A DNA stretch of 61,015 nt, filler included, from Hausera hauseri (Eukaryota): assembly GCA_046269625.1 (NCBI GenBank). It is 11 parts of 11 records of this genome, joined end to end, with 100 filler letters (N's around TTAATTAATTAA, not from the genome) between each part and the next. Parts side by side here need not be neighbours in the genome. Positions count along the whole stretch, not along the records: positions 51,531 to 56,298 come from JBJURY010443134.1; positions 56,399 to 61,015 come from JBJURY010502242.1; 9 more parts are not named here. The stretch is one strand, 5' to 3'. Under the pieces are notes generated by a model. The model did not search any database, was not told where the DNA came from, and saw nothing but the letters and a program-made list of their open reading frames with translations. This document shows positions 9,578-60,850 of the stretch, one piece after another. The position numbers and the translations under genes are program-made. Every line of letters begins with the position of its first letter. Position 1 is the stretch's first letter.

Positions 9578-10298
9578 TCAATTATTTTCAATATTTCGCA
9601 TAATAATGGATTGGAGTATTTCTTCTTGAGAGTACTTAGGCATACTACGTAATTTTATGTAATCTTTCTCTCCATAAGGATCAGTTAAGTCTGTTAGATT
9701 GGGTAATTTACAAATAGGCATTGTTTTACTCTCATACGGTGTGGCAGGTAATTTGTGCTTATCCTTTCTCTTTGGCTTCATAAACTTGAATTGTCTCCTC
9801 TTGTCCTTAAGGATTCCTGTTGTAGGATTGTATCTAGGGGCATTACTGTCATCCGAGCTTGATGAGGTATCCTTTGGAAATTGTTTCTCTGATTTGTAGT
9901 CAACATGTTTTTCTAATTTACCTCGCCATTGTTTCTCATGGTAGGCTTTAATGAATTTTCCTATTGGAAAAAATAAAGCACTTATTATGCTTGGCGATAT
10001 TCCCGTTAGATTGTAGATCTCACAAGCATTCAGTACGGAGTTGATACAAACTTTTAAAGTCTGTATAATGAAATAGATTACCAGAAACCATGAGGCTACT
10101 TGGCCGAATCTTAGGAATCCTCCCCACATTTTGTACCACAAATTTGAGACAATTTTGGTGTAGGCATCCGGTGTCCATAATCGATCCTATTTGCTTCTCC
10201 TGCTGTGTCGTCGATTACTCGGTATATCCCTCGATTTACAATTTGCTCTCTCTGTCTCGGATATGCCAAAAACTTTACAAATTAATCAATTTCTTCCT
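9578..10298 (-). pseudogene. C-terminal part of a chuvirus-like (Jingchuvirales G-type) envelope glycoprotein
   Basis: EEID*FVKFLAYPRQREQIVN (10296-10235), a frameshift, then KMWGGFLRFGQVASWFLVIYFIIQTLKVCINSVLNACEIYNLTGISPSIISALFF. This follows my recalled pattern for chuvirus-like G (..imFP.Ek.ailn.. k.W.gF..FG...a..l.i.ii..liK.ii.....g..l...yG.s..l..a.w). A basic/Pro-rich tail follows. Confidence 0.65.
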
Positions 10299-10398
10299 NN
10301 NNNNNNNNNNNNNNNNNNNNNNNNNNNNNNNNNNNNNNNNNNTTAATTAATTAANNNNNNNNNNNNNNNNNNNNNNNNNNNNNNNNNNNNNNNNNNNN

Positions 10399-13326: not shown

Positions 13327-16300
13327 CTGTGAAATAGAGAAAACAGCGTATGTCTTTTCACTAACGAGCTAGTATTCATACACATCACCAAAATTTACTA
13401 ATAATTTTAGGATAATATGCAATGTTAGTAAGCAAACAGCTATTAACAAATTGATGTAAAGAAATATAACTAAGATACACGCTAATGGTAAGCACGTTTT
13501 GTAATAGTAATTCTGTAAGTTTTGCCCTAAACTTTACTACAGACTTTTTCGTTTGCATTAGTGCTAGAACCCTTACCTTACCAAATATTTTACAAAGACA
13601 CCACTAGTAACTACATAATAATTTTACCAATATTAACTAACTGTTCACTAAATATCCATATACATAACTAATTTATAAAACATTTTCTAAATAAAGCACC
13701 TAACTACTAGTCGTGTAACTAAAACTAGGACACTATAGCAGTTCACTACTGTTCACTAATAATTTTCGCTAAATAAAATAACACTAATACTTTTCTTTAG
13801 CGAGTAAAGCGTTGCGTTTTTAAATAAAAGCAACTATTTAAAAAGCACACTCGTAGATTGGACAAATCCTCAACCTGTTTACGGATTATATTATATCTAA
13901 CCTAGATGGTAGTCTTGTAAATCGTAACTGAATCTAGTAATAAAATACAAGTTCACTAACTGAACCCTCCGGCAAATACGTACTTTTTTAACTAACTAAC
14001 CTCTGGTACCTTAAATAGTAATGTAAGCACACTGTGGAAAGAAATATTGTTAGCAATAGCTGATATTTGTATGATAGGACTAACTATTACTAAGTTAGTA
14101 AAGCCGAAAAAAAAATTTAACTAGATGTAGCGCACTCTGATAAAACAAACACAACTAGTGGTTAGTAACAAAATATAGGACAGGTCTAGAGGTTTAAATA
14201 CAGCTAGTAAGTTCTTAAATAGTAAATATCACAACAATTAGTACTACGAAGTGCTTACCTTTCCGTCAGTATGAGCAGATTTAATATGCCTACGTAAATT
14301 TTCATTTAAACTATACTCTTTATGACACACTTGACAAGGAAATTGCTGTGGGATATACAAAAACATGTATTACAAAACTATCCAGTAGAAAGAATACATT
14401 ATTCACCACTCTGTAATACAGTTACCATACTCCCGCCCGGTCACAGGTGTTAGTTACAGCCCGATCAATATATTCCTACAAGTATGTTTGATGCAAACCT
14501 TTTAAAACCAAAAACTGTTCCTAAGTCCCAAACACAGTATTTCCTGTTACAATCTTTTACTGAAAAATGGCAAACAGTTGCCTTAAAAAGAAAACCTGTT
14601 ACAGAACACTGACTACAACATAGCTTGACACAAAACTACACCAAGCCCCCTTCCTAGAAAGTATTTAAATTTTTACCTTTTCTACTTACTAATTCCCGAC
14701 CACCATATAGAAACAACCCATTTACCAAGCATCTTTACAAAACAAAACTAATTCCCAAACACATTGTTACAACCTTTTACCAAAAAACGAGCTCTATTGC
14801 AAACAGTTGCATTAAAAAAAAAAAAAGGAAACCTGTTATAAAAAATATACGTAACAACGTCTATTGCAAATAAGCAAAATACAGGCCTTGCATAATGCTG
14901 AAAACCATGCAGTACATAACTACACCACAAAACCAGGTAGGAAAACATAAGAAGTACCTTAGAATTTTGTTTAGTAAGCTCAACTTCCGTACTAGTACTG
15001 TTCATTGTTTCTGTAAAGAAAAAAAAAAATAAACACGCTTGAAGAAATATGAAGGAATAGCTGGAAAATAATTATCTTCTATGCTTTGGCTATACACCAA
15101 AAAGCGTAAAATATTAATAACAAAAAGGCGCTCTAGGGAAATATAGTTTTCATGCGGAAACCCTAAAATGGCTAAGAATATTCTTAAAATATATATACAT
15201 GTATAGGTGGAAAACCTTGTTAACGAGTATTCTCTAATGAAAAGTCGGTAATTCGTTAACCTAGGAAACGCGGCTGGTAGGATTTTTATCAAATAATTTT
15301 TAACATTATTAAACGCGAGATTACCAAAGAATAGAGGATACGGCTGTGTGGTAATTAAAATAAATGTTATTACTAGTAGAACAGCCATAACTGCGGACAC
15401 GCGACTCTAGTTGTGACAATATGTTACCTACGTGATAGGAACCATAAACCTTTTAGAAATGTTAGGTGGAAAATATTTAAGCCTAATAGAACACTGACAG
15501 GATTTTTATCAAATGATTTTACCAAAGACTGCTGATGTGGGTTAATTAAGCGCTAACATTATCAGAAGAACATCGGTGACCCTATTATGACACTGAAAAG
15601 CGCGGTTAACAAAATACTCACCAGAAGGTCGGTAAACTTGGCGGCTTTGAAGTTGACGACTGAAGAATCTGATGCGTGGTGTAAAGGTATGTTGCAAACG
15701 GTGCAGATTATACTCAGTAGATGAGCCTTATTACGCAATGTCAATGCACGAAAACAATAGTTCCGACTTATGTTATAGTAAACAAAAAATTACGCGACGT
15801 CCCGCTTACGTTATATTCATACGCCAAAAAAGTAGTCCCGCCTTACATCGTACTGTTTTCGGTACCTTAGTAAGTATTTACACAGGGGGGACATTCAACT
15901 TGAAATATCGATGCGTTGCAAATTTTAGTGCGATCTTATCTGCTACCCATATTAACATACATAGCGATGCGTCCTGTTTTTGCGAAAAATGCAGATTTTA
16001 CGGTGATCTTAATCTAACTTGGATAGAGAGTTTCACAAATTTCATTACATAGACCGATCAATATAGTAAAGCCCAGTCCGTTGATTAAGCGACAGGTGCT
16101 GTACATACCGGTGAAACATTAGCATTTATATTATCAACAGATCAAACAAGCGCGCGGGAAATTTTATCATGCGAAAATATCGATGTTGTAAAAGCTCACC
16201 TGGTGTTTCGCGGCAGAAATCTAAATTTGCTCTACTGTTAAAGATTGCTTATTGTATGTTAGTGAAAAATAAAATATATGAAAAATGACGGCGTTTTGTT

Positions 16301-19300
16301 ACTTCTTAAAGTTCTTGTCCATAAGCAACAACTAAGATGTANNNNNNNNNNNNNNNNNNNNNNNNNNNNNNNNNNNNNNNNNNNNTTAATTAATTAANNN
16401 NNNNNNNNNNNNNNNNNNNNNNNNNNNNNNNNNNNNNNNNNTATCTGTTTATTTTTTGAATGAAATTTATTGTAATTAAAATAAATAAATATGTATACGC
16501 CGCTTCATTCTTTGTATCATGTTTGTTTAATAAAAATTTGTAGCATTTTTTGGTGCCGTAGCCCGGGAATTATCTTATGTTTCTGTTCACATTTGGAACC
16601 GCTCTTTGTTAGGGTGTTGTCACGATTTTTTTTATTATTTACTGCTGAATTTCCTTAATGAATAAGAAATAAGTTCATTTAAATATTTACACATTAGAAA
16701 TCCCATTCACAAATAGAGAACTAGTGCGGCCAACAAGCAATTTATAGGTATAATTCGGAATATAGTAAATGCAATAAATCAAAATTCGATAAATGAAACG
16801 ATGAAATTAAAATTAATCAGTCAAGAAAGTCGAATAAAAGTCAATAATTTTTACTCTTGACATTTATTGGAAAACAGCTACAACTTAAAGAACGAATATA
16901 AACCAACTAGGAACGCATAAAACAACTCGTTATACCAACCGGAATCCCGCAGTCAAGCTCGTGTTGTCGTAACATTACCTAAAATATCCAATCCCGGCGA
17001 AGATAAAATTCATTATAAAATCAAATTGTGCGCTTAATAAAAACTCCCAACAGAAAAGTTTTACGATAACAGATAAGAACAATAATCCTTCCACTTATTG
17101 CAATTAGTTATACCACTAAGTAACTGACGATCGGGATTACTCAATTTTCCATTGCAATTTTCTCTACGAATCGCGGTTCTATTCAGTTTTCGTTGGTGAA
17201 TATTCCAAACATCATTTATATAATCCAAAAATACCTGGCAGTCAAATGATTAATATTTTAAAATAATCATTATCAATTACGAATTCCCAACCAATTTAAC
17301 AACAAAGAAAACGTAGTATCCAATAAAATCATTAACACATACAACTCAGTTAGGCATGAGTCATCGCGTAAAGTTCAATGGAAAATAACGCAGTTTGAAA
17401 CAAATGTTCTAAAACATCAGTTGATCGATTCATATGCATATTCGCAGTAGAAGGAATGATTCAATTACACGCAGACTCACATAAAAATAAGCACGTCAGC
17501 AAGAGCTTAATTATTTAGTGTACCTTATGAGTAGAATGCGGCAAAGATTTTTATATTAGTGACCCCATGGAAAAACACATACGCTTGTTGCATGTTAGTG
17601 GCATGCATTGATGCTGGCAATCTGAACAGAAACTTAAGTGAATAAATGTTGGAAATATAATATAAAGGCTGAATAAATGTGTTTTTATAAAGAGGTTGCA
17701 GGGAAGACGAGAATATCTAACAGGGAGTTACAAAGATTACGAAAACTCGAATAACATGCCTGTATTATAGAGACACACAGACTCATGACAGGGCTGACTA
17801 GTTTGCATGCAGACACACACATACAAGTGCAGCAGACATGCTTTTTTGTGAAGTGACTGGCGTGCCTGTCAGATTAATAACATACCTAAAACTTTAAAAA
17901 TTTGCCATTGGAGTGTACCAAAATTAACCACATGACGGAGGGGTTTATCCAGCCGCGGGTTTCGGGGAAATTGCATTATGGGCTGTTGCATCGAAATGTT
18001 TACCAGTATTGCTCATGTCGTTTTGCTCAAAGGGTTCAGCGGGGCGGGGATAGCATGAGGAGTCGATTTTCCATTTCATTTACTTTCGTTGGTTCAATTG
18101 TGCTGACATTTTCGGAGTAATTCAGCGAGGGACTCGATAGGGCATAGTTGGATAATTGACTTTTTGTGGAAGGTAATTTGCTTGCATTCGTCTGGTTTTC
18201 TTTGAATCCGCGGTAGATGGTTCCAAAGCGAATTTTCTTCGTAAATATCCAGAAAAATCGTAGAGATAACTGGTGAATCCGGAAAATTGACAAAAACGGT
18301 TTTCGGGTGTTATTTGAGAAATGTATGTTGTTGATTTGCAGCGAGTGGTTGCCACTGATGTATAACGAAGCAAGAATATAAAAGGCTATAGAGTAATACT
18401 TTGCAGTTAAAAACAATAATAATTAACAATTATAAAAATAAATTATAGCCTTTTAAGCAGTAAAGATTCAACATAAAACGCTAATATGTTTGGTCTATTT
18501 TAAGCAAAACTGAGTTAAATAAATAACTACTATTGACAAAATTTTATCCAATGACGACTGCAAATGTCAAATCGAGTCCGCAGGAAAACAATAATTAGTA
18601 ACTAAGTTAAATGGACATACACACTATTAAGATATGATAACGAAACACACCGTGACCATATGATCAAATATACACAAAACACTGATTAAGTATGAATGTG
18701 TATATAGGTTCAAAACTATATGAAATGAACATAAAACTTTATTGTATGAAATAATCAGTAAGAGAAAATCTTCCATTATAAGATACACTGGCGCACAATG
18801 CGAAGTCGATTCAATTTTACACTGGCCGTCATGTCAGTTTATCGTCACCAGCTATGTTATCACATACGACTGAGGTGGCAATCAACGTGATAAAACTTCA
18901 GACGAAATTATTGACTATTAACGGGAACATCGATGTTGAAAAGTTATAATTCGATCACTTAACGATTAACCAATGTGCATTTAATGTATTTCCCAATTGA
19001 GTAGGAACAGGATGTTAATACTCCGTTATGAGTGTACGACCTTTTCCGCAAATCACAATCTTACCCAATTAAAAATAAATAGGCTTATACTAAAATAATA
19101 AACCAAGGAAAATACTTCATAATCAAAATAAATTGTACTCAATCAACGGAATTTATCAATCCTGGCATCTCGAATTACATACCTGAACTGATCATTAATA
19201 TTTAAACTAACATCAGGAATAAGTAATGTATCCAGAGGGAGGATATTTCCATTTAGTTTCAATCATCCCCGTTGTTGTAAATGAGTTACTCAAATACTAC

Positions 19301-20047
19301 CTCATCAGATAAACAATTGCTAACATTATCATTGTTAGCAAAGCAGAATGGTTTCTAAACATTCGAGAGGATTTTTGGGATTTTCCGGATAATACGGCAA
19401 TACATCCAACATCGGAGTGAAGTCAATATAGCGAAAAAATGAATCCAAGCACTTTCAATGCAATTTATAATGAAACGCTAGTAGACGGATATTACGTTTT
19501 CTTTAAAAAAGTCATAAGTATTGATCAAAATATTAAGTACTAAAGCGTTAGAGAATAATTAGTGTGTATTGCCGTGGGATTATGTATATAGTCAATTTGG
19601 ATAGGGTGAGAACCGAATTAAAATATTTCATATTTAATTGATATCACCGAAAAAAGTATTGAATTGCAAATTACTTATAGGGAATATTTCGTATAAGGAT
19701 AAAGATCGGTTTATTTTATCTTTGAGTTGGATTTTGATTGTAAACTTATGTTCTTAATGGTATATATCGTTTACTATTAAAATTCCGAGACAGTGATAAG
19801 GAAACATGAATATATAGTGAAGATAAATGACTATTTTGATTATACTAAAAGGACCATAAATTATACTAATACTCTGTAATTAAACGAATGTTTTATTTAT
19901 TTCCACATGGAATGTACAAAGTAGTTGAAATGTTGAGATGGTTATATACCTTTATTGAAAGGGCATTCACTTATCTACATAGGGAAACACTGAAATTGAG
20001 TTAATTTTAATAACGGGAAGAGTGTTTTCAAATAGTATGTATTTCCC

Positions 20048-20108
20048 TATGTGTATGTGTATATATATATGTGTGTGTATGTGTATGTATATGTGTGTAT
20101 ATATATAA
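20048..20108. repeat. (TG/TA)n microsatellite
   Basis: tatgtgtatgtgtatatatatatgtgtgtgtatgtgtatgtatatgtgtgtatatatata. Confidence 0.85.
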
Positions 20109-20376
20109 ATTGTAAATAATTAGTTAAATTAAATAGCGTAATTTAAAAATAAAATATTGAATATGTTAAGGATAACGAATTAGCCATTTAACCAATTTAG
20201 ACTCCTAATTTTAGTCAATTGTTTAATCAGTTAATTTTAAGGTACACTACAATTTCGCATAACCTCGATTTTGATTGGTTTATACTAGAAAGTCACAAAA
20301 AGATTTTTTGAAAGTTATTCAAGATAAAATTTTAGACAAGTTCATCGTCGAAAATATAACTTATTAAAAAGTTAAC

Positions 20377-21020
20377 ATGGCTCAAGAACAAGTACAAAAA
20401 CGATTTCATCCCATGCAACATCTTGATGTTGATGTTGAGGAATTTGACGGAGGCCCAAAAAATTGTTTTCATTTTTGGAGTTATGGGTCGCGAAGTTCGG
20501 CAATTGGTTTGGGTGGGAAAGGGGCGATTGGAGGACTGCCGTTGTCACTGACTGACGGCTGTTGACGCTTACAATGATCTGATCGATGACGAAGGGGTAA
20601 ATTGGATGGGGCACAAACCGCTTTTACTGATGAATTTTACCCCACATTGTTTCCACATCAACAGTTGATCAAATTGCAGAACTTATACCGACCATATGAC
20701 GAAAGTACAACACAATATATATGCCTTGGGGCACATTGTGACTCGGTATGTGTTGAGGCTGTTCGACTAGATGCAGTGAAAGGAAATAAAGAATTTGACG
20801 AAAATGAATGGAACATTGATACACTGTTGCTTACACAGTTTTTAAATGGATTAAGCTCTTAATTGAGATGCGGAGTGCAGGCAAAATACCCTGGTGGCTT
20901 TGTTGATGCGTTGAAGGCAGTTCAAATGATGGAGTCCTTCACTCCACCAAAACGACAAAGAAATACCAATAGATTTCCCGAGAATGATTCGCGCGGAGAT
21001 GATAACTGACGAAATTATCG
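20377..21020 (+). pseudogene. gag: Ty3/gypsy Gag capsid region, frameshifted; ATG overlaps a putative LTR/PBS junction (GTTAACA|TGG)
   Basis: Across frames: DVEEFDGGPKNCFHF/LELWVAKFGNWFGW...AVDAYNDL..NW/DGAQTAFTDEFYP...LIKLQNLYRPYDESTTQY...LLTQFLNGLSS*LRCGVQAKYPGGFVDALKAVQMME, which fits the Retrotrans_gag capsid pattern. Confidence 0.7.
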
Positions 21021-21024
21021 CGTA

Positions 21025-21357
21025 GAAAATGATTACAGTTGTTCAACTCAAATGCAACCGTGCCCCTTGTACAACTTGTTTCAACAAATTGCGATCCCCT
21101 TTCATTCAAAAACTCGATCAACGAGGCGAAACTAATGTGACCTTCCAAAGTGGTATATCCTGCCCTTCCTGCCGATAATTGTCAGTTTATTATCACTTCT
21201 CGTATACCTACGATGAACGAAGTCAGCGCCTGTGCCATTGGATTAACCAAATAAACGATGCCACATTAGCAATCAAACTCCGACTCCTCAGCTACATCGA
21301 TATCAGTACCCAGACTGATCCGGAGGACCGAATCTTTTTTCAAAGGGGGGGGAGAAA
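21025..21357 (+). pseudogene. Retroelement-borne RING-domain ORF, 5'-truncated; homolog of 51531-52181, ending in the polypurine tract
   Basis: MITVVQLKCNRAPCTTCFNKLRS...SGISCPSCR*LSVYYHFSYTYDERSQRLCHWINQINDATL...STQTDPEDRIFF aligns with ORF 51549-52181; the first CxxC is missing. Confidence 0.85.
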
Positions 21358-21662
21358 TGTTGGGGTTTTTTATTTAATTCAGAACCCCATTTCGAAAAAA
21401 TAAATCAACCACAAAATGAAACAAAAATTCAATCCAAATTCAGAGAATTCGAACCGAAACAAAAACGACACGTGCTGACATCTATTCGTGATTCAAAAGC
21501 AGTAACACTAACAATAACATATTTGTGATCCGAAATATTAACAATAACAACATTAACAATAACATCTTTGTGATCAGAAATTGTTCAGTGCAAATGAATC
21601 TGACTATGACTATGTGAATATTTTGTTATAAATAATAAATACTTGTATATATATAAACGTCT
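21342..21662 (+). repeat. Polypurine tract (21342-21357) and start of a 3' LTR (TGTTG at 21358)
   Basis: AAAGGGGGGGGAGAAA directly followed by TGTTG; same arrangement as 52152-52170. Confidence 0.75.
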
Positions 21663-27929: not shown

Positions 27930-28400
27930 TAAATGTTTTCATTTTGATTTTTCCGGAACTACCGATGTTTCCCAATTAGTCTGATTTATTTTCGTAACAT
28001 CTAATGATTTCGCCGTACTTTTCGAAGATGTCTTTGATATCAACTACTGTCCAACGTGACGAAGCATTTCTTATTTCAACATTATAACCCAAATTTGTAA
28101 GACCTTTCAGAGCACGTTGTCTTTTCCTCTTTTATTTGTAAACCTTCAGCTGCATTTTGGACTTTCAATTTTTTTATTTTGAATCGAGTATTGATGAAAC
28201 ATTTCAATTGCCTTTTCGGCATCAAATGATTTTTCATAATCAACAAAATCGTAGCATTCACTTCGATTTTCTTTATCTCTGACAACATGATGATGGGCAA
28301 TCGGACCTGCTTTACACAATAATTCATATAAATGCCGTTTAAAAAATCCATCTGGCAAATTACTTACAATTAAATTTGTTTCACGTCTATCGCCGGGTGG
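27930..28400 (-). pseudogene. ELAV/Sex-lethal-like tandem RRM gene fragment (divergent or decayed)
   Basis: ETNLIVSNLPDGFFKRHLYELLCKAGPI...VRDKENRSECYDFVDYEKSFDAEKAIEMFHQYSIQNKKI matches the ELAV-family RRM1 layout; a second RRM-like stretch (VEIRNASSRWTVVDIKDIFEKYGEI) follows; stops and frameshift present. Confidence 0.65.
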
Positions 28401-28862
28401 TTTCGTTCGACTCGTTTGCTGTGGTCGGTCAAGTAGTTGTGACGTTTGGAAACTGTTATATAAACCACGATCTTTTGCAAAAAATTAATGGCAACTTGGA
28501 AACATTCTGTCGGTTGGCCACAAGCTAAGTGGACCTTTTATATTAAATAATCAGCTTGAGATGTTGAGGAGATCTATGTTGTTATAAATTGATCCGTTCG
28601 TATACATCTTGAAATGTGAAGAGAATAATCTAAATTGACACTGGAAACAAAAAAGTTATGGCCTGAATGATGATTTCAACATTAATCAACAAATAAAATG
28701 GTTTAATTTACAAATATTAAAACAAAAAATAGTTTTATGAACAAATCACCCATTGGGTGAATGTGGGCATCACAACGAGCACCTGATCTCCTACTCCAAA
28801 CGTCCTTTTTACCGTGGGTCCTTCCTAACTCTGTGTTCCTTCCTTCTGTTCCTTTATTTTTT

Positions 28863-35000: not shown

Positions 35001-36177
35001 AACCATCGAAAACTGTCCTACATTTTGTGGTGTCTCTATCGGCCTTCGTAACTGGGAATTGCGGTAACAACCAAGCTATATCCGGTTTTTCCTGCTCCTC
35101 CACTAATCGAATGCACCCTTCTTTGCTGTGTGCTTCTATCACTTTTTCATACGCTGCTTTTGCCGTCTCATCCTTGTCCAGCTTTCTCTTTAAGGTTTCC
35201 AACCTTTTATGTGCTATCCGTTTGTTGCATTCCATTTCAGGTTGTATCCTTCCCTTCAATGGCAACGGCACACAGTATCTATTCACCTCGTAAGTTGTTT
35301 CATCCAATATATTCTTTACTGTTTCCTTGTCTTGTTCAGACCTCTCAGACTCTTCCACGTCCATATTAAACTCAATCTCCTATAATCGACTCAAGTCGTT
35401 TTGAATTTCTTCTGCCCTTGTCCAGAAAGCTCTCACAAAATTGCTATTTATAATTTTCTTTCCCTTTTTTATTTGCCTTACACAGGTCCAACCTAACGGG
35501 GTTAATCGCGCCACCGGTGCATACCTTTTACCGCATACCTATTTGATTGACCTGTGTAATTCTATAAAATTCGCCCCTATGATCCCATTCACTTCCGACC
35601 TGGATGACATTTCGGGGAACTTTAAATCCTTTAAGAGTGGCCATTTCTGTCTTTGTATGAACCAATTTACTGCCCTCATTCGCCCCGTTGAATTTCTCAT
35701 AGCCAACGTTTTGAAATTTACTTCTATTGACTGTTCCATATTTAGTAACATCATTTTAACTCTATTGATAAACATCTTGGTTTATTTTCCTCCGAGAACT
35801 GCTATCGTCAGCTTTTCTGTCTTCTTACTAACACCCAATTCTTCACACAGTTTTAAATCTACGAAAATCTCGGTGTTGGCATCGTCCAAAAACATTATTG
35901 CCTTTTTCATTCTATCCCCATTTTTTAACCACACTTCTATTGTCCTTAACGTTACCATCTCTTCTTCTTTGTTTCCCTCTTGAGAGCCTTGTGTCACATA
36001 TGCTCTAACACCTTTTTTCTCATTCGATGTCTCTTTTCCTTTTTCATATTCTGTCGTCCATGGCAGTGAATCTTCTGCTGTCCTACGTGTTATGTTTTCC
36101 TGAGAACTTTCAATTTTTCTCCCTACTTCCTTTTCTTCGCAATTGTTTTTGACATTTTTCATGTTATCCATTTCCCC

Positions 36178-36324
36178 ATGTAGAAACCTACAATTATTCC
36201 TATACTTACATTTCCCTTTTTCAAGGTACCAACATAACCTTCTTTGATCATCCTTGCTAGATTGATGTAGGTATTTACAATTCTTTCCGAATTTGCACCA
36301 TCCGTTCTTATCAAAATTCCAGCA
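36178..36324 (-). other. Tandem CCCH zinc fingers in BEL/Pao Gag
   Basis: CWNFDKNGWCKFGKNCKYLH (C-x8-C-x5-C-x3-H) and CWYLEKGKCKYRNNCRFLH (C-x7-C-x5-C-x3-H). Confidence 0.9.
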
Positions 36325-37431
36325 TCTCTGGAACTGATCTTCTCGCTGTATGTTGTGGTGGCTAGATTGTACCTCCCTTTTAACTTCTCGATCTCTTATT
36401 TTGGAATCCATGTTCTCGATATCTCTATTAACAACCCGTGATCTTTTCGTAAAATACAATATTCCATCTCCTATTAGTGTGCATCGACCATCTTGACTTG
36501 GTTTGAAGGCTTCGATTTCTCTCATTCTCTCTATGATATTTCTCCTAACCATCGCTTCTATCTCGATCCAATTTTTCAATTCCATGACTGTTCTATCCGA
36601 CTTTTTCTTGATCACATGCCCTTCCAATAGAAGCACAATTCATTCAGGAAGATTTTCAACGAGGCTTTGGTACAATAGCCCTCCACTAAGTTCTCCCGTT
36701 CTCCCTAGATTCCTCAATCTTACAATTATTCCTTCTAACAACGCCACAAACTCATCTAGCCCTTTAATATCTTCCTTCTCTATCACCCGAAATCTTATGA
36801 CTTCGGTCATAAACGCTGCATAATAACGTTGTTCACCTCCATAATAGGAATCCAATGTCTCCAGTGACGCCCTAGATACTTCTTCTGATAGGTCGAAATT
36901 TCCAATCAGCCTTTTCGGCTCACCTTACAAGCACTGGTTCAGCTGCAGTTGTTTATATATTTTCGACATTGGGGTTTTGTGGATAAAAGTGTCAAAAGTC
37001 CTTTTCCATTTATCGTATTTGGTAATTAGCCCACCAAACTTCGGCAACTCTAATTTTTGTAACTTTGGTAATATTACTATTTTCGTTTTCTCCTTTTCAG
37101 GCCTTCCATTGGCGATCATCATCTTATTTTCTCTTGAGCTCCTCTCATAGATGATTGCGTTGATTTTTTTGTTCTGATCGTCTAGTTTCTCCATATCATT
37201 TTCTAACAATGTGAGGTTCTCCTTTTTTCTCAACTTTCTCGCCGTGGTGGCTAGTATACTCAACTCCCTTTGAAGATCGGTAAACGATTTATCATACTTC
37301 TCATGATATATTTCGTATTCATGATCATTCAAGTTCACATCCATCAACTTCCTTCGAATAGCTGAAAGATCGTTGATGTATTTACGTCGCTCAGATATCC
37401 TACCTTACAGTTCGTCTGCAATTATTTTACT

Positions 37432-49344: not shown

Positions 49345-49651
49345 ATTGTTGGCTGCGAGCGCTCCACACCATCCACGTCATCGCCCAGCCGGGTTAGGGT
49401 TTTAAAATACCCTCCCTCTGGTATGTCTGCTGAATCAGAATTGGATTGTTTGAGATTACTCATTGAAAAGTAAACACCAGTAGAAATTTTTATTGTAATC
49501 CAAATTATTTATTTTGAAACAAATTTTCTAAATCCAAATCAGATTTGCAATATTACCTTAGAAATTTAATTAATTAATTTTAATTAAATTTTTCTAAATT
49601 ATTCCAAATTACAATCTTAATTTAAATTCTCTTATCAATTATATCCTCACA
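49345..49651 (-). repeat. LTR/PBS/ORF-start repeat (homolog of 29780-30090) interrupting the piggyBac 3' end
   Basis: TGTGAGGATATAAT starts exactly where the transposase sequence breaks off (VHPR|CEDII). Confidence 0.7.
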
Positions 49652-51203
49652 ACGTGGATGGACCAATCTTTCTTCAATGTAGGACTTTGAAAATTGAAAG
49701 GTCAAATGCAACAAAAACTGCTTCCTGTCACCAGAATAACCTCGCTTTCGCATTATTAAGAAAGCATTGTAACACGAAACATCTAGGATATTGTAGTGAA
49801 CAAGCATTAGCGATCGCACAGTTTTTCTGCGATATGTAAAGGTTTTGGTTCGGTTATAATCGGTGATGAGGACAGGCTTTCTTTGAATATCATCATTTAT
49901 TTCTAGACCAGAATGAGATGAGCTCAACATCATAAGATTTTTGTTTCTTTTGGGCAATTAAAAACAAACAACTATTTTCTTTTCATGCTCAAACAAGAAA
50001 TTTGGTGAAAATATTTTTCTGTCTTTAATAACTTTCAAGCTTTGAGGAATATCCCTCCTGTTAGTGTTTAAATTCCCAAGCAATGATAATTGTTTTTTGA
50101 GAAGCTCTGTGGCTAATGTATGTCATGAAAAATAACGATCAGTTACAATTTCTCTCCCCGATCCATGATACGGTTCTGTCAGTTACATTACAATATGAGT
50201 GCCTAAGTTTCTGTGCGGTTCCAAACGATTTCCTCTAGAGTAAATTAAAAAATTTAAAGTATAACCGGATGAAGATTTACAATTCCAAAAACTTTGAGCC
50301 CAAATTTTCTTGGTTTGCTTGGCATATAAGTTCTTCCTGGTATTCGTCCACGGTAGCCAAATAACTGTTCATCCACGGTTAGAAAAAAGTCAGAAACATA
50401 AAATCTTCTATGGTTTCCATTGAACAAGGATATTAAGTCCCTTACAGCTGCAAGTTTGTCATCTCTCTTATGTTATCATATCTCAAGGTTCTGAGGAAAA
50501 ATGTAAAGCGATTTTATGACATGCATATTCTGTAAAAGGGACGTGCATTGACAGAATCCCACAACAAACTCAAATCATTGAAGTTATCTCTATCACGTCC
50601 TGCACGCAACATGATTGCAATACCAGCAAGGTATGCATCATAAGGAAATTCACGATAAATATGCTTATTTGACACATTGGCAGGCAAATTTTGCCGAATT
50701 GCCTTAACTTTCAGATTTGAATAGCGGAGATTTGTCCGTACAATAAATTCAGAATAAATGATGTAGAATGATTCCATCTCATTGACAGGATTAGCCATGA
50801 CCTTGGGTTGTTCTGTGACAATGTTGCATTGCCTAAATCGATTTGAAAATGGTTGTTTGTTAAATGAAACACCAGTCCATGACATTTCAACATCGTTTCT
50901 AGGATCAGTGTTCAATCTTTCCCCAGTACCATCAACACGGTCATCATCTGAAATAGAAACATCCTCCTCACTGTCTTCAACTTCCACTTCAAGTTCACCT
51001 TCGCTTGTCTCTATTCCATCATCACATTCAGAACTGCTTTCATTCTCTAAAACATTGTCATTTGACATTTCATCTGCATCATCATCAGACATGTCAGTTG
51101 CAGTTTTATTATTACGGACGTGGACATTCTCGTCATCTTCGTCACCAAGTAAAATTTGACAGGCTTCCACAAATGCATTATGACTTTCTCTCATCATTTC
51201 CAA
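49652..51203 (-). mobile_element. piggyBac (PGBD-like) transposase pseudogene
   Basis: Acidic N-terminus; PFYRICMS*NRF; LTVDEQLFGYRGR, YMPSKPRKFGLK, IVTDRYFS, MMLSSSH, KPVLITDYNRTK, NILDVSCYNAF; the GGVD segment carrying the third catalytic Asp is missing. Confidence 0.92.
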
Positions 51204-51530
51204 GAAACAACAAGTGCAGTATAATTATTCTTAAATATTATAAATAAGAAAAATAAGACACTACATTGCTATATTAACAACAGATAACTGATGGGACCCG
51301 ATTGTTAGTTAGGGAATCCTGCAAAAGTCCGATCAGAAATCGAAATTGGGATAAAGAAAAGAGTATGCGTGTACATAGAATGTATGTGTGTATAGGAATG
51401 GAAACGGGTATATTGGTATCATATGTATAGNNNNNNNNNNNNNNNNNNNNNNNNNNNNNNNNNNNNNNNNNNNNTTAATTAATTAANNNNNNNNNNNNNN
51501 NNNNNNNNNNNNNNNNNNNNNNNNNNNNNN

Positions 51531-52181
51531 TTACCCCATATAAATGTTATGACTCTTCTACGACAGCCATCTTCAATACCACATCCACGTTATCAACCTG
51601 AACGAATCACTAGATCATTGCCTGAATTGCCAGTGCAGGTACCCACAATAATACCTACACCAACTATTTCGTATAGTCCACCATTACCAATATCTTTACA
51701 AGAAGACTGGTTCCCAGTCTTTAAAAAATGTCCGATTGACCTTATATCTGATCTAGCCCCTCCTGACTTATGGGCAACACTACAATCTCACTACTACGAC
51801 CAACTCCCTACATACGAATGTACTATATGTCTTACCGAAAGAATAACAGTAGTTCAGTTTCAATGCAACCACAAATTATGTGCAACCTGTTTTAACAAAC
51901 TTCGATCTCAATCCCTCAAATCGATCAATCCAGAAGATGCTCTTCAAATGACTTTTCAAAACGGTATCTCATGCCCATACTGCCGACAACCATCAATTTA
52001 CTACCATTTTTCCTATATCTATGACAATCGAACTCAACGATTATGCCATTGGATGAATCAAATAAACGATGCAACATTGACAGTAAGACCCCGAAATCTC
52101 AGTTTTATCGATGTCAGTACCCAGAGTGATCCGGAGGACCGAATCCTTTTCAAAGGGGGGAGAAATGTTGAGATACTTTAA
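51531..52181 (+). CDS. Pro-rich linker plus C3HC4 RING domain ORF ending across the PPT/LTR junction; open to the contig's 5' edge
   Basis: CTIC-x11-CNH-x2-CATC-x27-CPYC at 51819-51983; ends PEDRILFKGGRNV; no stop between 51531 and the first ATG. Confidence 0.88.
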   Translation, partial: LPHINVMTLLRQPSSIPHPRYQPERITRSLPELPVQVPTIIPTPTISYSPPLPISLQEDWFPVFKKCPIDLISDLAPPDLWATLQSHYYDQLPTYECTICLTERITVVQFQCNHKLCATCFNKLRSQSLKSINPEDALQMTFQNGISCPYCRQPSIYYHFSYIYDNRTQRLCHWMNQINDATLTVRPRNLSFIDVSTQSDPEDRILFKGGRNVEIL

Positions 52182-52600
52182 CAAACAATATTCTGTATAA
52201 CTTCTCCATGATTGAGATACTTTAACAACCTCTTTTATTTAGTTGTTAAGCCTCCATGATAGGCATTTTTATTACGCTGTTGATTGTAGATTATTTGTGA
52301 ACCTTTTCGTTCTACAACCACTTTTGTAACCATCATGAGACTTTTCGTTCTACAATCACTTTTGTAACCATCACGAAATAACAGATTATTTTAAATTGTA
52401 AATTAGTCACTCACTTAATTTTAGAATTGGATTTAAGAATTCGTCAGAATTAGTCACTCACTTGATTTAAGAAATTAGATTTAAGAATTCGTCAGATTGA
52501 CGTCATCCACAGGAATTTAAAATAACAAATAGAATTAAAAATAGAAATTTATAATCAAATCGATAGGTATAAATACGTGAAAACATTTGCAAACGACACA
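52152..52600 (+). promoter_or_regulatory. PPT (52152-52165) and U3-like start of a 3' LTR with duplicated motifs, CRE and TATA box
   Basis: AAAGGGGGGAGAAA|TGTTGAGATA; three pairs of direct repeats (from ~52168/52212, ~52303/52341, ~52401/52449); TTAGTCA twice; TGACGTCA at ~52497; TATAAATA at ~52568. Confidence 0.7.
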
Positions 52601-53968
52601 CTTTTTTCTTCATACATAATCCGACGTAGTAAAATTTGAAGCGTTCTGGTAGCTTCTATAAATTATTAGAATAATCTTTAATTTTATAGAGTAGTCAATC
52701 ATACCGAACTGATCATTCATTTCTGAGAATAATTGAAATCTAATTCTATACCTACTACTATCCATATGGCTGCACAGAGAAATCCTAATTTTGATTCCCT
52801 TGAAAGTAATGATGGTAAGCAATTGATTTGTCATTGAGTTTGTATCTATTGATGTATTTATTTTGTTATACAATAAATTATTCTGAAGATAAATCCAAGA
52901 GACTCAAAATGATAATTGAAAATCGGATTGGAGTCTTAATGAATTAAAATTTGTGTTATAATAGATGATTTATTCAGGTGTTCTAAATTATTTATTAAAA
53001 GGAATTGCTAAAATCCATTCCAAGAAATGAGTCGAAAGGCGAATTGTTTGTTAGAAACGAACTGATCATCGATCAATGTTCATTTTACAAAGGACCCGAC
53101 GTGCAATAGTGGCTCGGCTCAGCAGCTTTAATGAAGGAAAATATGAAGAGATACGGAGAAATTATACAAACGGAGATGCGACACTCTGTGTTGGGGATTG
53201 GGTTATTTTATATATATCCGGGATGGTGAGGAAATATCGTAATGTAATTTTGTCTGCAATTTATCTGAATCCAGTGATTTCTAATTTGATAAAATATTTT
53301 ATGTGTTTAATGCCCTTGAATTATTCAATCTATTAATTAGGATTTAATGAGTTTGAGGGTTACACCTTGTACGAATCGTCGGGAGATTTGAGTATTATAG
53401 ATAATGTGGATGGTTTTATGTAATAATCTCCTTTAGAAGTTTAAAAGAAAGGAAAAGAAGAAAGTTGATTGTATTTTTGTATCATTATGCCCCTTAAATG
53501 AAAATCAATTTTTTTAATTAAATAAAGTATCAAACAAAAGCTTTGAACAATAAGTGATTTAATGTATTGGGGAATCATTTAGATCTTTGACGATGTTTTT
53601 AAATTTTGTGTTCAACCGATGGCCAGGTATAGTATTACGAATGGTTGGTTTCAATGTTGTTTCAAGATTTACTGATGTGAACTTCGGTCGTAGCAAGGAA
53701 TTGATGGGAGGCTATCCAAGTCATCTATATGAAACAAAGGCGGTTTAACAGCTGAATGCAATCGACAACTACAAGGAGGTGAATTCGGAATTACCAGGAT
53801 TGATTGCGTCGGGGTCACTCAGTCAGTTGTGGTCATGATGTATATGTATATGAGGGTATGTATGTACATGTACGGGGATGGCAAATTTTGTTTACCTGGT
53901 GATCTGGCGTTGATGTCAATAAAAATAAATTAAATAGGTCAGTACTTATATTGTAGCTCTCCAACAAT

Positions 53969-54175
53969 ATATTAGAGTTGAATTACGCAGTAGATATATA
54001 TTGATAAAACTCTTTTATTATTTAATGAATATTTCCGATAAGATTTTATTATAATAATTATCCTTGTGACAATGTATTAGAGTTGAACAGCAAAGTAGAC
54101 ATATCGTGGTATAACTCTTTTTATTATTTAATGAGTATTCCTGATAGGATTTTATTATGATAATTATCCTTGTGA
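53969..54175. repeat. Two-copy ~105-nt tandem duplication
   Basis: TATTAGAGTTGAA...AACTCTTTTTATTATTTAATGA...ATAATTATCCTTGTGA occurs twice. Confidence 0.85.
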
Positions 54176-54974
54176 GTGATATCTGCATGTGATAACAAAT
54201 TGGTTCGAATTGGATCTAGTCTCGTACACTTCATGAAGATATGAATATGCACCGACCCTTGAGAAATTAGCGTTAACAAAAAACTTAGTTGTTATGACTG
54301 TTAGAAGACGTTGATAACAGGAGATTTAAATTGTGGGACCTATGTATTTATGTAGCTCAGAATTTCAAATTGAGTGGAGCGATTGATTGTTTGAACTCTC
54401 GTTATGAGACTAATTGTTCAGAATATTTCTCTTGTTCCATTAAAATATTATTAGAGGAAAGAAAATGAGGTGTAGGAACTAATAAAGGTATGAAAATAAA
54501 TGTTGCTTGTAGAAAATAGCTCTAACAATGTTAAGGCTTTATTCTTAAAAGAATGAATGCACGGTATGAGTCAGATACCAGAGTGACCATATGACCTAAC
54601 AAGATGATTCAAAGATCAGAGTAGAAAACCTAACGAATAGAAGAATAATAGACGACACAATAACCAAATAACAACCTTGGGCGCAGATTACCTTGGTAAT
54701 CCTACCGCCACCGAACAAACACACCTTCAGGTTACATATATGTTGGAGGATAAAGGAAGTTAAAGGAAAAGACGAATACAATACAGGAGTTAAGCGAATT
54801 ACAATGGTTTAATGGACGTCATGAAAGCAGTTGTATATATCAAAGATATTACAATAATCCAACATATAAACTGGTGCCCCGAGTGAGGACACCTTTAGAT
54901 TATACAAGAAAAGATTGTGATTAAAATGATAACTGATAATTTTAGGAAAATTTTACCTGGATTTTGAAATTTAG

Positions 54975-55285
54975 ACAGCAAGTACGGACCAGTGCAGTGT
55001 GAAATTTGCTTTGGACCACTGGGTCGGCATTATGCACTTTTTCGGTGCACACACATTATGTGTGTTAATTGCGCAGACCGTTGGCTATCGAAGAGCCAAA
55101 CGTGCCCCTTCTGCAGAAGAAAAATAAGCTCATATCAGTGTCGGGGAGCCACTGTGGTGGTAATTCCAGATGATGAAGAAGATGAACAAGAAAATGAAAT
55201 GGAGGAGGACCCGAATGAACTTTATGTATTAGGACCAAATCAACTTGTGCAAATGCCTATTTCATTATGTATTAAATACAGATAG
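54975..55285 (+). CDS. Small C3HC4 RING protein or exon with acidic tail
   Basis: CEIC...CTH..CVNC...W.....CPFCRR; no ATG before the RING; AG acceptor at 54973-54974. Confidence 0.8.
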
Positions 55286-55489
55286 TATAGAATTGAGTTA
55301 TGGGCTGATGGTTTTGAAGCTGTTTAAATTAGAATGAGTGATGAATTAGTTGATCTAAATGAACAATATGTATATGTCTTAAGGAAGTGGTCTGCAAACC
55401 ATGAGCGGGATAAAAGGAGGGAAATGACAAATAATATTGATTCAATAAATTAAAGTTTAAGGAATTGGATTGAGTAATATTGATTTTAG

Positions 55490-55725
55490 GTTGCATCATC
55501 TGTAAAAGATTTCCGGAAACTTGGGATGAGGAAGAGAATCCCTGTCCCCTATGTTATTTAGTGGAGAAATTAAGTCAACCAGAAGATTTATTCGAGTGCG
55601 GTCATTGCGGGGAAGAGGCTAACTTAGGCTTAATGACGTTGGATGAAGATTACCGTTTATTATGTCCTGTTTGCGCCTTGTCGTGGAATGATTTCGAAGA
55701 AATTAACAAATTGATTAACTTATGA
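55490..55725 (+). CDS. Small acidic protein or exon with four CxxC pairs
   Basis: CIIC, CPLC, CGHC, CPVC; preceded by TTTTAG (55488-55489) and followed by AATAAA. Confidence 0.6.
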
Positions 55726-55790
55726 AATTTGTAATGGAAATAAATAAATTGATTATTGTACCTAGTGAAATTTGGTTTCGTTTATTGTAG

Positions 55791-56203
55791 AAAGATGCCC
55801 TATCTGTTTGGATAACATGGCATGCGAAAGGACGGTGCTACCATGCCAACACCAGTATTGTACTCAGTGCATTAATACTTGGTTAAATGAACAGAGTAAT
55901 TGCCCTTGTTGTCGACGAGTTTGCACGTTTTGCTGGGTATGCCTTAAATTGGTGACAGATAATCTGATTGTTCTATCGTGTCGACATGTGTTCTGCCAAC
56001 CGTGTATTTTGGAGTATTTGGGATGCTGTCAATGTTGTCCTTACTGTCTTGAATCAGTGGACTTTTATGTTGCAGAAGGAGTGATCACATATCTAAATAT
56101 GGATAATCGCTCATCCATAATATTGGTAATTGATGAGGACGATGGCAGTTGGCCGGAACAGTGGAGAAACCCATCACCTTATACGATATTAGACTTTAAA
56201 TAA
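55791..56203 (+). CDS. Tandem double C3HC4 RING protein or exon
   Basis: CPIC...CQH..CTQC..W....CPCCR immediately followed by CWVC...CRH..CQPC...CPYC; preceded by TTTATTGTAG (55789-55790); stop overlaps AATAAA. Confidence 0.82.
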
Positions 56204-56399
56204 AATTGAATTATTAATAAAATTAATTGTGGTAAATTGTTCGTTTCGATTTCTTAAGGTTATTCCCCCAATTTGAATTCCATATCTATATTATCTCANN
56301 NNNNNNNNNNNNNNNNNNNNNNNNNNNNNNNNNNNNNNNNNNTTAATTAATTAANNNNNNNNNNNNNNNNNNNNNNNNNNNNNNNNNNNNNNNNNNNNC

Positions 56400-57427: not shown

Positions 57428-60400
57428 TTATTTCAACCTCCAATGTCCATATGCCCAACTCTTATTTCGATCCACGCACTTTCGCTTATCATCTTTACAT
57501 GACAAAGCGACTTTCGCACTAATTATTGTATACAGCTGGTGCTCAATTGATCGGATGATCGTTTGAGACACAACAGCCATTGATTGTCCTCCTTCTGCTG
57601 CTGCTGCTTCATATATACGGCAATAATCACCGTGGCTGATTTTTATCTGTCTCAGCTGGACTCCTTTTGCCCGAATTTTCGGTTCACAGTCCGTCAGAAG
57701 ACTGTAGCACTTTGGCCGTAGGAATATCTATTTCTGATATTGAACCTTGCCTTCACTTTCATCCTTGAAGCAGCCGATTTTGTTGGTGATCGCGCTGTTG
57801 TACAAAGGATGACCGGTGAATAGTTAGACGTGTCCAGTAATCCATCTAACTGTATTTCCTGCAGTAGTTGTTCGCGATTGACTTTTTTCAGCCCCAGGAA
57901 AAAACTGTCTGTTTCACCGGCAATTATACTAATGTCACAGCCGCCAAACATTTGCCAGTAATGTGCCAAATCGCGATACTGTAGCTCATACATCCACAAC
58001 TTGCTCAAGTCCAATACCACTTGTCCGATGTAACTTGGCCGGTCCAAAACGACTTCTTTTCTGTTTAATAGGACCGCAACCAATCCGTCGGCGACGTTCA
58101 TTGACCGTCGAAACTGCGCCTTACTCGTGTATATGACCAACCGCTTTTAGCTATTGCATAGGCGTAATTGAGCCGCTTTTCAAAATCTTCACAGTTGTTC
58201 CGTACAGGGAATTGTCTTTCAGCTTGTAGTAGTCCTTTTCGAATTTTGTACAAACTGCGGCACCTTTCTCCGAATTTCCATCTATGTACGCCTTGAATAT
58301 GGAAGCCTGAGCAAATCTAATTTCACGATGCAGCTGTGTGACGCGAACACCGAGCTGTATGTAGAACTGTAGCAGATGCCAATTGACCACGTAATTCAGC
58401 TTCGATTCATGCTTTATGAGGAGTTTTTTCACTTTTGAGCCAGGTGGACATTGGTTAAATTGTGCAACAGGTAAATCGTCCAAAACGTCATGCAGCTCAT
58501 CTGGTACCACGAGATAGACCTCTATCAGGTATCCAATTGAGCCTGCCATGTCTGTTCGTGGTAGATTGATCATTATGTTGTCCAGATCTTGTCCGTCAAC
58601 AACCCATTCGAATGAACCGTACGGCAAGGGTTGTGAAAGCGCCCAGTTGAACGGGTTATTAATATCAATATGCAGCAGTGATGTGGTATCGGTAGCACGG
58701 ACCTGATGCTTGTTAACAAATGTCATGCCGTCGTGAATATCAACATCAAACAACCGGTACATTTCCAGGTCTTGGAGTAGCTCAGTGTCTCGATCCACTG
58801 ACATTAAAGCTGACGCCCAACTCATTCCTGGTATGGAATAAAAGCTGAGTGGCTCCAGCCTATCTTCAGCCAACGCTTTCGCTCGAAATGCTTAAAACAC
58901 ATAGGCTAATAAGTACATGTCCAGTTTAAGATACTGGAGCATGTAATCCAACATATTTCTACATCTGAGTTCTGTACAACACCTCTGTGCTTTCTGGTAT
59001 TCATCCTCTGCGATACCTGTCCATTGCGGCGGTAATTCATCTGCTGTGCGGAGTCGCTCATACGATATTGCAAAGTCATATGGGAATAAGCCTTTTTTGC
59101 GTCCCATATGTGCGGGGAACTGCGTCAGTGCTATCGGCACATCTGGCAAGGCATTTACCAGCTTTGAGAAATTGCAATGAATCGAGGAAGCAAACCTGGA
59201 ACCGGTTTATACGAGCAGACAGTGACAGGTATTTCTCCATCGTAGTCGGAATTATGGATAGTTTCCAGTGCGGAAATCCGTTTATTGCCCATTTCAAAAT
59301 ATGATGACATTCATAACCCCGGAAGTTATGAAAAATCGCCGGCAGGAATGGCCGCATACGCCTTTGCAAATTGCATGAATTACATGCTGCTCCGAGATAT
59401 TGACCGGTAAAATGATCGTGATCTGGTATGAGCAGTTCGTGTGCATTAAACTGTAATATTGTGACACAGGTAACATTCATGTGACTGCGATTTCAGTTTT
59501 CACTATGGTTTGCAACTGCTACAAGAAATAGTGTACATAATTCCATCCGTGGAAAGCATAATATTGAGGATGACCTGCATCTTTTATTGGGACAACCAAC
59601 AGACCTACGGCGATTGGAACATGTTTTTGGTCATATATGTTGTACCGTGGTAAGATAGCTTCGATATCGGCATATACCACATATGCCGGACTGTCTGTTT
59701 TTGACCAATCAGTGAACCTGAGTTTCTGTTTGACGGGCATGTCATACATTGTGGTTCCTGATGAATTTTGTCTGCACAGAGTCACATGTTTTACCAATGT
59801 TGTTTCCGACCTGAATCCTTGAAGATATACAGGCTGCCATTTACACTATCCGTTTTTGGAGGAAATGGTCATGCTTCATGTTCAGTAGTTTGTCCATATT
59901 TGTCACTGCAACGTAATGGTACTTTTCTTTTCGTTCCAGTAGCAAAAAATTTACTGAACAGCGGCTATTTGTGTTCCGACTACGATGGATTATATCCACA
60001 TGAGGGTTTTTGTAAATTTCTTCATCCACCGGTATTTCTAACATGGTGTTGTACCGGAACATGTTGATTTCCGGTGTCGGATTACGCCGCTCAAAAGTCA
60101 GAATGGATTTCAGTTTCTCAGCATCCAGCTTTCATCGAAATCCAGTTCGGCAAAATATTTCTGATACTATTTTGGACGAGATGCACTATGTCTGTCTACT
60201 TCGTCATATTTCAATACCGCGAGAATACTGTAAATAAAACAGTATTCATCATTGGTATTTTTTACATTTACTACCGCCAGACTGCTTTAGAGCTGCAGGT
60301 GTCGTCATGAATGATCGTCCAGACAAATATATTACATCACTCAACTTTTTTTATGATAAAACCGAGAGTGACAATTTTTATAATTCGCCATTCACCACCC

Positions 60401-60850
60401 TTTCCAGTGTAGTTGGCGATTTTTTCATCCAGCTTTTCGCCTACGTCAGCAATAAAATCTTCGGAATACAGTACGGCTCGATGTGAAAGTACCATTGTTT
60501 CCTTACACCTTCCAAATTTTTAAATTCTGCAAGTGCATAATATTGCACTTTGCAGTCATGTTGTTGGAATTTGGCCACCTCTGTTTTTAGCCGGTTACGC
60601 ACATGAGTAGATACATCCTTCAGTTTTCACCGACATGTCCACCTTCATGTCCACGTACGATCTGTTTAGATCGTACCTGACTGTAATGTTGGCATCCTGT
60701 TCTTGTTGAAGCTGTTCCTGCTGCTGCTGATGGTGCTGGGTACTGTTTCTGATTAAGTCGTCAAGACTTGTTGAGGCCTCACGTTTCCTACTGGTTGCTG
60801 AGGGATGCTGCTTCTGCTGGTTGAGTCTATAACTAGTTGTTTTTTCGACC
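57428..60850 (-). pseudogene. polB: Second Polinton/Maverick protein-primed PolB (HNH/endonuclease VII insert type), heavily frameshifted
   Basis: YHYVAVTNMDKLL; ExoI VYADIEA; DHDHFTGQYLGAACNSCNL; ExoII FHNFRGYE; KKGLFPYDF; ExoIII YLKLDM; motif A HIDINN...LSQPLPYG; motif B KLKDNSLYG; motif C GETDSF; C-terminal KDDKR...AYGHWRLK* at 57428. The 5' limit is approximate. Confidence 0.92.

Follow-up and report, generated by a model that had tools for sequence, protein, structure and literature searches.

The DNA analysed here (the window) is a stretch of 61,015 nucleotides from the Hausera hauseri assembly GCA_046269625.1, in which 11 contigs of 4–8 kb are joined by N-TTAATTAATTAA-N linkers. Since the contigs are joined only by these linkers, adjacency across a linker is meaningless. 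For the contig under study, at positions 51531–56298, the original prediction was a single long terminal repeat (LTR) of about 4.1 kb, from 52166 to the contig end, that encodes a battery of RING and zinc-finger genes. Our analysis points instead to a 2.7-kb LTR with a polypurine tract (PPT) and a primer-binding site (PBS). The RING and zinc-finger exons behind the PBS are probably spliced accessory genes that belong to the 5' internal region of an LTR retroelement present in many copies, and are predicted to encode small ubiquitin ligases. The features that carry this reading are the following.

51531–52181, plus strand: 3' part of a multi-RING open reading frame (ORF) on the PPT side, with a Pro-rich linker and a C3HC4 RING (Pfam zf-C3HC4, 23.5 bits, cut-off 21)
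52152–52165, plus strand: polypurine tract, read from the sequence; the same PPT-TGTTG junction occurs in contig 4 of the window at 21344–21362
52166–54864, plus strand: LTR of 2,699 nt, TGTTG...CAACA, a low-copy variant, based on a 5-bp terminal inverted repeat, the PPT before it, the PBS behind it and depth
54872–54889, plus strand: primer-binding site of 18 nt, complementary to tRNA-Met, with one mismatch to the engineered HIV-1 PBS-Met
54975–55285, plus strand: exon R1, a C3HC4 RING with an acidic tail; acceptor AG at 54973–54974, phase 1; Pfam zf-RING_2, E = 1.8e-9
55490–55725, plus strand: exon Z2, a C4-C4 finger with four CxxC pairs; acceptor AG at 55488–55489, phase 1; AATAAA at 55739
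55791–56203, plus strand: exon R3, a double RING with a conserved acidic/Trp tail; acceptor AG at 55789–55790, phase 1; Pfam zf-C3HC4_2, E = 1.3e-13, in two stretches

Copy context was obtained from two public sequencing runs, used as contigs and denoted X1 (60% of the sampled words) and X2 (11%). X1 is possibly the source sample, in which case it provides no independent support; the depths are summed over contigs and are not copy numbers, and only orders of magnitude were used. The LTR start TGTTGAGATA (TGTTG) at 52166 lies directly behind the purine run. Up to this position the depth was 17,007–39,887 in X1 and 390–843 in X2, while over 52326–54710 it was 6–41 and 0–22, respectively, and 53 X1 records and 7 X2 records diverged from the window sequence behind 52169. 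The deep PPT side and the divergent records suggest that the PPT-TGTT junction is common to a very large family whose LTR interiors differ. The PPT side is tied to the LTR start by a record covering 51989–52171 and by joints from 52173. Thus, the predicted start at 52166 is confirmed by the preceding PPT, the junction shared with contig 4 and the diverging X1 records. The checks proposed earlier on other copies and on the evenness of depth both went against a 4.1-kb LTR: other copies diverge, and the depth is uneven. Because the letters after TGTT differ among copies, an inverted end of 10 bp is not to be expected.

The sequence CAACA occurs five times on the contig, and only the occurrence at 54860–54864 is followed by a PBS, after 7 nt. 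The PBS motif has one match in the window, where 0.01 would be expected by chance even if three mismatches were allowed. Compared with the engineered HIV-1 PBS-Met clones in the available part of PMC1084362, positions 54872–54889 match the input clone at 16 of 18 positions and the final-A clones at 17 of 18. That the site is part of a tRNA gene was rejected, as no tRNA gene was found in the window. The bin 54860–54919 reaches the depth level of the PPT side, with 18,710 in X1 and 311 in X2, compared with 10–172 in X1 over 54560–54859. An X1 record of depth 27.7 spans 54867–55011 and joins the PBS to R1, and three more joints connect the two in other copies. Terminal TG/CA with short inverted ends, a PBS just behind and a PPT just before are all present, as is characteristic of LTR retrotransposons, and from the PPT, the LTR and the PBS together we conclude that the contig is probably part of an LTR retroelement. 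The PBS and the depth steps give the order 3' internal end, PPT, 2,699-nt LTR, PBS and 5' internal start, an arrangement in which we have high confidence. Such an order would result equally well if the assembly collapsed the two near-identical LTRs of one element or if two elements in tandem shared an LTR.

These boundaries bear directly on the 4.1-kb LTR, which would run from 52166 to about 56301 and contain the RING genes. The contig does end in TATCTCA at 56298, behind AATAAA at 56199 and 56216, and these are the 7 letters expected before a terminal ACA. TATCTCA occurs eight times on the plus strand of the window, and the chance of the match at the contig end is about 1e-4 to 4e-4 for a feature that was picked post hoc. 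Beyond 56298, both of the X2 records listed continue (median 108 nt) without an ACA, and the depth at this position stays at 474–1,381, with one 809-nt record running 187 nt further; among the 12 of 140 loose ends listed, none for X1 lies at 56298. Within the interval, the depth is not even but differs by three orders of magnitude in X1, with thousand-fold steps, and an LTR end and a PBS at PPT-level depth lie in its middle. The RING exons start at least 111 nt behind the LTR end and are therefore not inside the LTR, in which the coding content is confined to a candidate leader exon and non-RING candidate exons. With the 7-letter match at the contig end as its single remaining point, a single LTR of this extent is extremely improbable, and the 4.1-kb RING-encoding LTR is refuted.

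A second arrangement would place two same-orientation copies on the contig: a 3' LTR of 1.8 kb that ends at 53966, or a shorter one that ends before it, would be separated by a spacer from a short 5' LTR at 54741–54864 or 54501–54864, and the RING genes would still lie behind the PBS. AATAAA occurs twice and is followed by CAACA at 53918–53966, a 7-bp inverted repeat pairs 54741 with 54864, and the low depth over 52326–54710 resembles that of single-copy DNA. The competing end AATAAA...CAACA noted earlier at 53962–53966 is present as sequence, but it was rejected as an LTR end because it has no PBS and no depth step and is spanned by a record covering 53845–54033. A start at 54501 was likewise rejected, since the record 54134–54708 is unbroken across it. 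For a start at 54741, which would give an LTR of 124 nt, the depth runs the wrong way, being 131 at 54680–54739 and 33 at 54740–54799; together with a joint from 54730 to 54860 in another copy, this shows that the terminal part of the LTR extends to positions before 54741. Inside the 2.7 kb, the LTR start is not repeated and no second U3-like sequence was found, and a G-rich skew is continuous over 52961–56298. For parts of the LTR, X1 contains a diverged version alongside the exact one, and these may be alleles or a second copy; the contig itself holds one LTR. We regard the two-copy arrangement as unlikely.

It is also conceivable that the contig is chimeric, with subfamilies joined through the short conserved words of the PPT and the PBS in an order present in no chromosome. 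The contigs are short, the repeats at both junctions are very deep, and the whole stretch is spanned by no listed record. Against this, the PPT side is connected with the LTR start, and the PBS with R1, by the records and joints given above, and each junction is natural for an LTR element, which makes a chimera very unlikely.

The RING spacing was above the Pfam cut-off in R1, R3 and the PPT-side ORF. Of the three Cys-rich ORFs described originally, all are present and two hold three RINGs above the Pfam cut-offs, while the third is not a RING but the C4-C4 finger Z2, for which no RING family matched in Pfam, the RING spacing did not fit and a single-sequence fold was uninformative. The RING ORF before the PPT and the assignment of the RING domains to a repeated element were both borne out. 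In a comparison with the PDB, R1 matched solved RING ubiquitin ligases (E3), with RNF4 as the best match (E = 2.6e-8) and the equine herpesvirus ICP0 RING 1chc also present (E = 1.1e-5). The residues through which active RINGs contact the ubiquitin-conjugating enzyme (E2), namely Ile, Trp, Pro and the Arg after it, are kept in R1 and in the first RING of R3; the second RING of R3 lacks the Trp and Arg.

A relative of R3, P0005 (127 amino acids, 46% identical), keeps both RINGs, all Cys and His residues and the acidic/Trp tail. It was the only one that matched beyond the RING motif among 8 examined of the 150 listed from 1,290 representatives at E = 0.001; the top match, P0004, is a plant RING-H2 repeat protein. 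Searches for proteins of similar length with R3 and the PPT-side ORF gave no match. In the ESM Atlas, the closest clusters consist of small RING proteins of viruses (0.90–0.92, fewer than 170 shared features), a weak lead to a viral origin. Scans for related loci with R3, P0001 (the longer relative of the PPT-side ORF described below), two alignments and two DNA motifs gave no match on viral contigs, scans of prokaryote genomes gave none, and all 8 loci from a metagenome scan were chance motif matches without further likeness.

None of the three Cys-rich ORFs has an ATG before its first CxxC. All three have a T-rich pyrimidine-AG acceptor in phase 1 within their first 30 nt, a feature found in 8 of the 270 window ORFs of at least 60 amino acids, these three included. 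The commonest copy difference at 55487 retains the pyrimidine-AG acceptor of Z2. An AATAAA follows each exon, at 55444 for R1, 55739 for Z2 and 56199/56216 for R3. The splicing model further draws on these features within the LTR.

52166–52600, plus strand: U3-like part, with three pairs of short direct repeats, a CRE-like site at 52498 and a TATA at 52568; its function is predicted
52766–52814, plus strand: candidate leader coding exon of 49 nt, ATG plus 16 codons plus 1 nt, with a GTAAG donor in phase 1; predicted
53964–54175, plus strand: a stretch of about 106 nt duplicated in tandem with 84% identity, which overlaps the competing LTR end; from a blastn self-comparison
54305–54468, plus strand: candidate phase-1 terminal exon of 53 codons inside the LTR, from the acceptor scan; AATAAA at 54481 and 54495; no Pfam match

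The promoter elements proposed earlier are present, namely the CRE-like site TGACGTCA and TATAAA. The donor at 52815, about 200 nt behind the TATA, is the only one of 9 strong donors in 52166–54980 with an open phase-1 ATG. A longer phase-1 exon candidate inside the LTR, from 52978, is broken by two stops. An ATG leader between the PBS and R1 was rejected, since none has a donor. Judged from these sequence features, splicing of a common leader to the RING exons is rather likely. Transcripts would start near 52600, and the donor at 52815 would be joined to the acceptor at 54973, 55488 or 55789. With a poly(A) signal for each exon, one promoter and one leader would serve alternative last exons and give rise to several small proteins, and the unspliced read-through RNA would be the genomic RNA. 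At 52647–52694, just before the leader exon, one X1 contig (a single record, depth 6.5) skips 46 nt with GT..AG ends. This looks like the loss of an intron in the 5' untranslated region of another copy, as from reverse-transcribed spliced RNA.

A second, separate multi-RING gene would occupy the opposite end of the internal region, next to the PPT. The PPT-side ORF is open at the contig start, crosses the PPT and continues 16 nt into the LTR. It is 63% identical to the C-terminal half of P0001 (425 amino acids, on a contig of 19,467 nt), with the Cys/His pattern kept. In P0001, Pfam recognises a RING towards each end, and a third Cys-rich block separates the two; since P0001 stands alone, the PPT-side ORF appears to be a separate multi-RING protein and not a Pol fusion. 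A search for longer proteins, in which 1 of 33 candidates was found (P0001), also argues weakly against a Pol-RING fusion. The end of P0001, RGEKC, would fit the PPT-TGT junction read in another frame. The GC skew is -0.31 in the PPT-side ORF (51531–52165) and +0.17 to +0.29 over 52961–56298, all on the plus strand, and this flip may reflect different origins of the PPT-side gene and of the LTR cargo and RING cluster.

Contig 4 of the window contains a related copy.

20377–21362, plus strand: decayed copy in which a gag-like ORF (with stops and frame changes) is joined to the distal half of the RING ORF, followed by PPT-TGTTG

This copy has 73% DNA identity over 335 nt and unrelated sequence behind TGTTG, and its differences from the PPT-side ORF are distributed as 26/21/44 over the three codon positions. 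The joining of a gag-like ORF to the RING ORF suggests that gag, or gag-pol, lies in the unseen middle of the element. Before the gag-like ORF, at 16740–20340, lies about 3.8 kb of decayed, AT-rich, coding-like sequence, in which six frames of 16742–20343 with stops as X gave no Pfam match. It may be either a different 5' cargo of the family or a second element.

The differences among copies were taken from tables of the best-supported 40 of 421 and 40 of 110. In the three exons, 16 of the 24 listed differences are synonymous (0.30 expected, p = 2e-4), and in the PPT-side ORF 8 of 12 are; for all 36 together, p = 6e-6. A residue is changed by 11 of the 36, and one, located beside another changed site, would create a stop if it occurred alone. 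Positions 55284 (the R1 stop codon), 55487 and 55780 (before acceptors) were omitted from this count. The synonymous bias and the 46% identical relative with intact motifs indicate that the RING cluster has been under selection while being repeated.

These results also bear on the possibility that the RING cluster was acquired as cargo, with a DNA virus, a Polinton-like element or a family of host genes as its source. It would then have been inserted behind the PBS in one subfamily, and would either be expressed from a leader of its own or a trans-spliced one or have become dispensable to the element. At a likeness threshold of 85% for counting copies, the depth behind the PBS over the cluster was 46–3,192 in X1 and 0.2–60 in X2, approximately 1–15% of the PBS depth, as would fit one subfamily. 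The small viral RINGs among the ESM Atlas neighbours (weakly) and the Polinton-like contigs in the same window point in the same direction. The bias and the intact relative do not, and neither does the presence of another RING gene at the PPT end in nearly all copies or the agreement in phase between the exons and the LTR leader. We therefore consider captured cargo quite unlikely.

Several observations weigh against our interpretation of the exons as spliced accessory genes of a high-copy LTR retroelement. Because the cluster is shallower than the PBS, most PBS-bearing copies must carry something else or a version less than 85% alike; because the LTR interior is in turn shallower than the cluster, the majority of copies with RING exons must have a different LTR, and the leader exon has been seen in the present LTR variant only. 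No reverse transcriptase or integrase was found on the contig (51531–56298, contig 10 of the window), scans for related loci linked no pol to it, and no gag is proven: the ORF on contig 4, which by its motifs we take to resemble a gypsy capsid/gag, gave blanks in Pfam and PDB and a fold with a mean confidence (pLDDT) of 34. Host flank is present on neither side of the contig, hence no target-site duplication or second LTR is visible. At 7 bp, the inverted pair 54741/54864 exceeds the pair 52166/54864 (5 bp) in length, and an R-U5 of 2.3 kb with several AATAAA would be unusual. In addition, contig 4 has a different PBS-like site at 16551–16568, behind AATAAA...CA, which is presumably tRNA-Phe-like. 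Membership in Ty3/gypsy is possible, as is a non-autonomous element.

If the exons are translated as predicted, the RING proteins would, by analogy with the accessory E3s of DNA viruses, recruit a host E2 and target silencing or restriction factors of the host for degradation, or else serve as E2 decoys. A role as accessory E3 ligases or E2 decoys against host silencing is the one we favour, at somewhat less than even odds. A broader proposal is that a very abundant animal LTR family is a carrier of ubiquitin ligases. It would have a conserved multi-RING gene before the PPT and an interchangeable set of alternative last exons, encoding a RING, a C4-C4 finger, a double RING or, in the hypervariable LTR, no RING; one start-codon exon in the LTR would serve them all, and the products would degrade silencing factors. 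As a whole, this proposal is speculative and rather unlikely.

Nearly all contigs of the window (1–61015) are retroelement or Polinton-like fragments, probably from an animal genome, and this portion of the assembly is a bin of repeats. Contig 2 carries, at 4726–10186 on the minus strand, a gypsy-like element with the end of a Monjiviricetes (chuvirus-type) fusion glycoprotein (PF24664, E = 4e-13); the env-like gene lies upstream of protease and reverse transcriptase on the same strand, and a long ORF without a Pfam match lies behind the integrase. Contig 7 carries a BEL/Pao-like element (35785–36639, minus strand) with two CCCH zinc fingers in the gag region (PF00642, E = 1.5e-8). Two Polinton-like pieces were observed, one with a 1,005-codon ORF containing two C2H2 fingers (10354–13368, minus strand) and one with a broken protein-primed polymerase B (57694–60700, minus strand; PF03175, weak, E = 0.006). 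We take 49622–51224 (minus strand), which has no Pfam match, to be a piggyBac-like remnant, and 28149–28484 (minus strand) to be an ELAV-like RNA-recognition motif. As a set, the 11 contigs are mostly decayed gypsy-like, BEL/Pao-like and Polinton-like pieces.

Retrotransposons are usually viewed as passive targets of silencing, and few are known to carry counter-defence genes of their own. If our interpretation is true, the element provides a testable case of transposon-encoded E3 ligases kept by selection at high copy number. DNA viruses have accessory E3s, such as herpesvirus ICP0 and baculovirus IE2/PE38, and as in ICP0 (1chc) a C3HC4 RING with E2-contact residues is found here in a genomic parasite. 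The viral E3s are large proteins with substrate-binding regions, whereas those predicted here are 90–150 amino acids long and almost only RING. In complex retroviruses (HIV nef, MMTV sag, foamy viruses and epsilon-retroviruses), an LTR promoter and a donor feed several accessory exons; if true, a leader with a cassette of alternative last exons would parallel this in a separate lineage. The PPT-side ORF also crosses the PPT into the LTR as in these viruses, but the overlap is 16 nt only and the RING battery lies behind the PBS, not in U3. Moreover, the accessory proteins of retroviruses are not RINGs themselves but act by hijacking E3s of the host.

In the plant elements Ogre and Retrosat2, the extra ORF sits before gag. 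According to the available parts of PMC6431247 and PMC3485330, these elements resemble the present one in having LTRs of 2–6 kb and an extra ORF besides gag-pol; their extra ORFs are described there as single and without known function, in contrast to the several RING/zinc-finger exons without an ATG of their own found here. The LTR elements of bdelloid rotifers share exchangeable accessory ORFs, as separate units from spliced messages, but in the part of PMC5408684 available their ORF3s are env-like or enzymes and lie behind pol, unlike the RING exons. The word RING is absent from the main texts of PMC5408684, PMC13524379 and PMC6338049, and 7 supplements of PMC13524379 do not contain the PBS motif. 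In a partial literature search, we found no report of an LTR element that has free-standing RING genes at its two ends or a RING cassette sharing a leader. Tandem LTR elements that share an LTR show the same PPT-LTR-PBS order in the portion available of PMC13570524; a collapsed assembly explains the order here equally well.

Thus, extra ORFs, long LTRs and ubiquitin-related domains are already known from Burro, Ogre, Retrosat2 and the rotifer elements. The planarian Burro/GYPSM1 elements are, in the available part of PMC6431247, giant gypsy-like elements with long LTRs in thousands of copies, and like the element studied here they are invertebrate LTR elements with extra ubiquitination-linked domains, some of them on upstream accessory ORFs. 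No MATH, BIR or BCL2-like domains of the Burro type were found in the scanned ORFs, most of the internal region lying outside the contig. Compared by description, the Burro domains (MATH, BIR, BCL2-like, SUMO-like, ankyrin and an AIR1-type motif) reside mostly in a polyprotein of 4,900 amino acids in the same portion of PMC6431247, whereas the C3HC4 RING genes of the element described here stand alone, appear to be spliced and lie at either end of the internal region.

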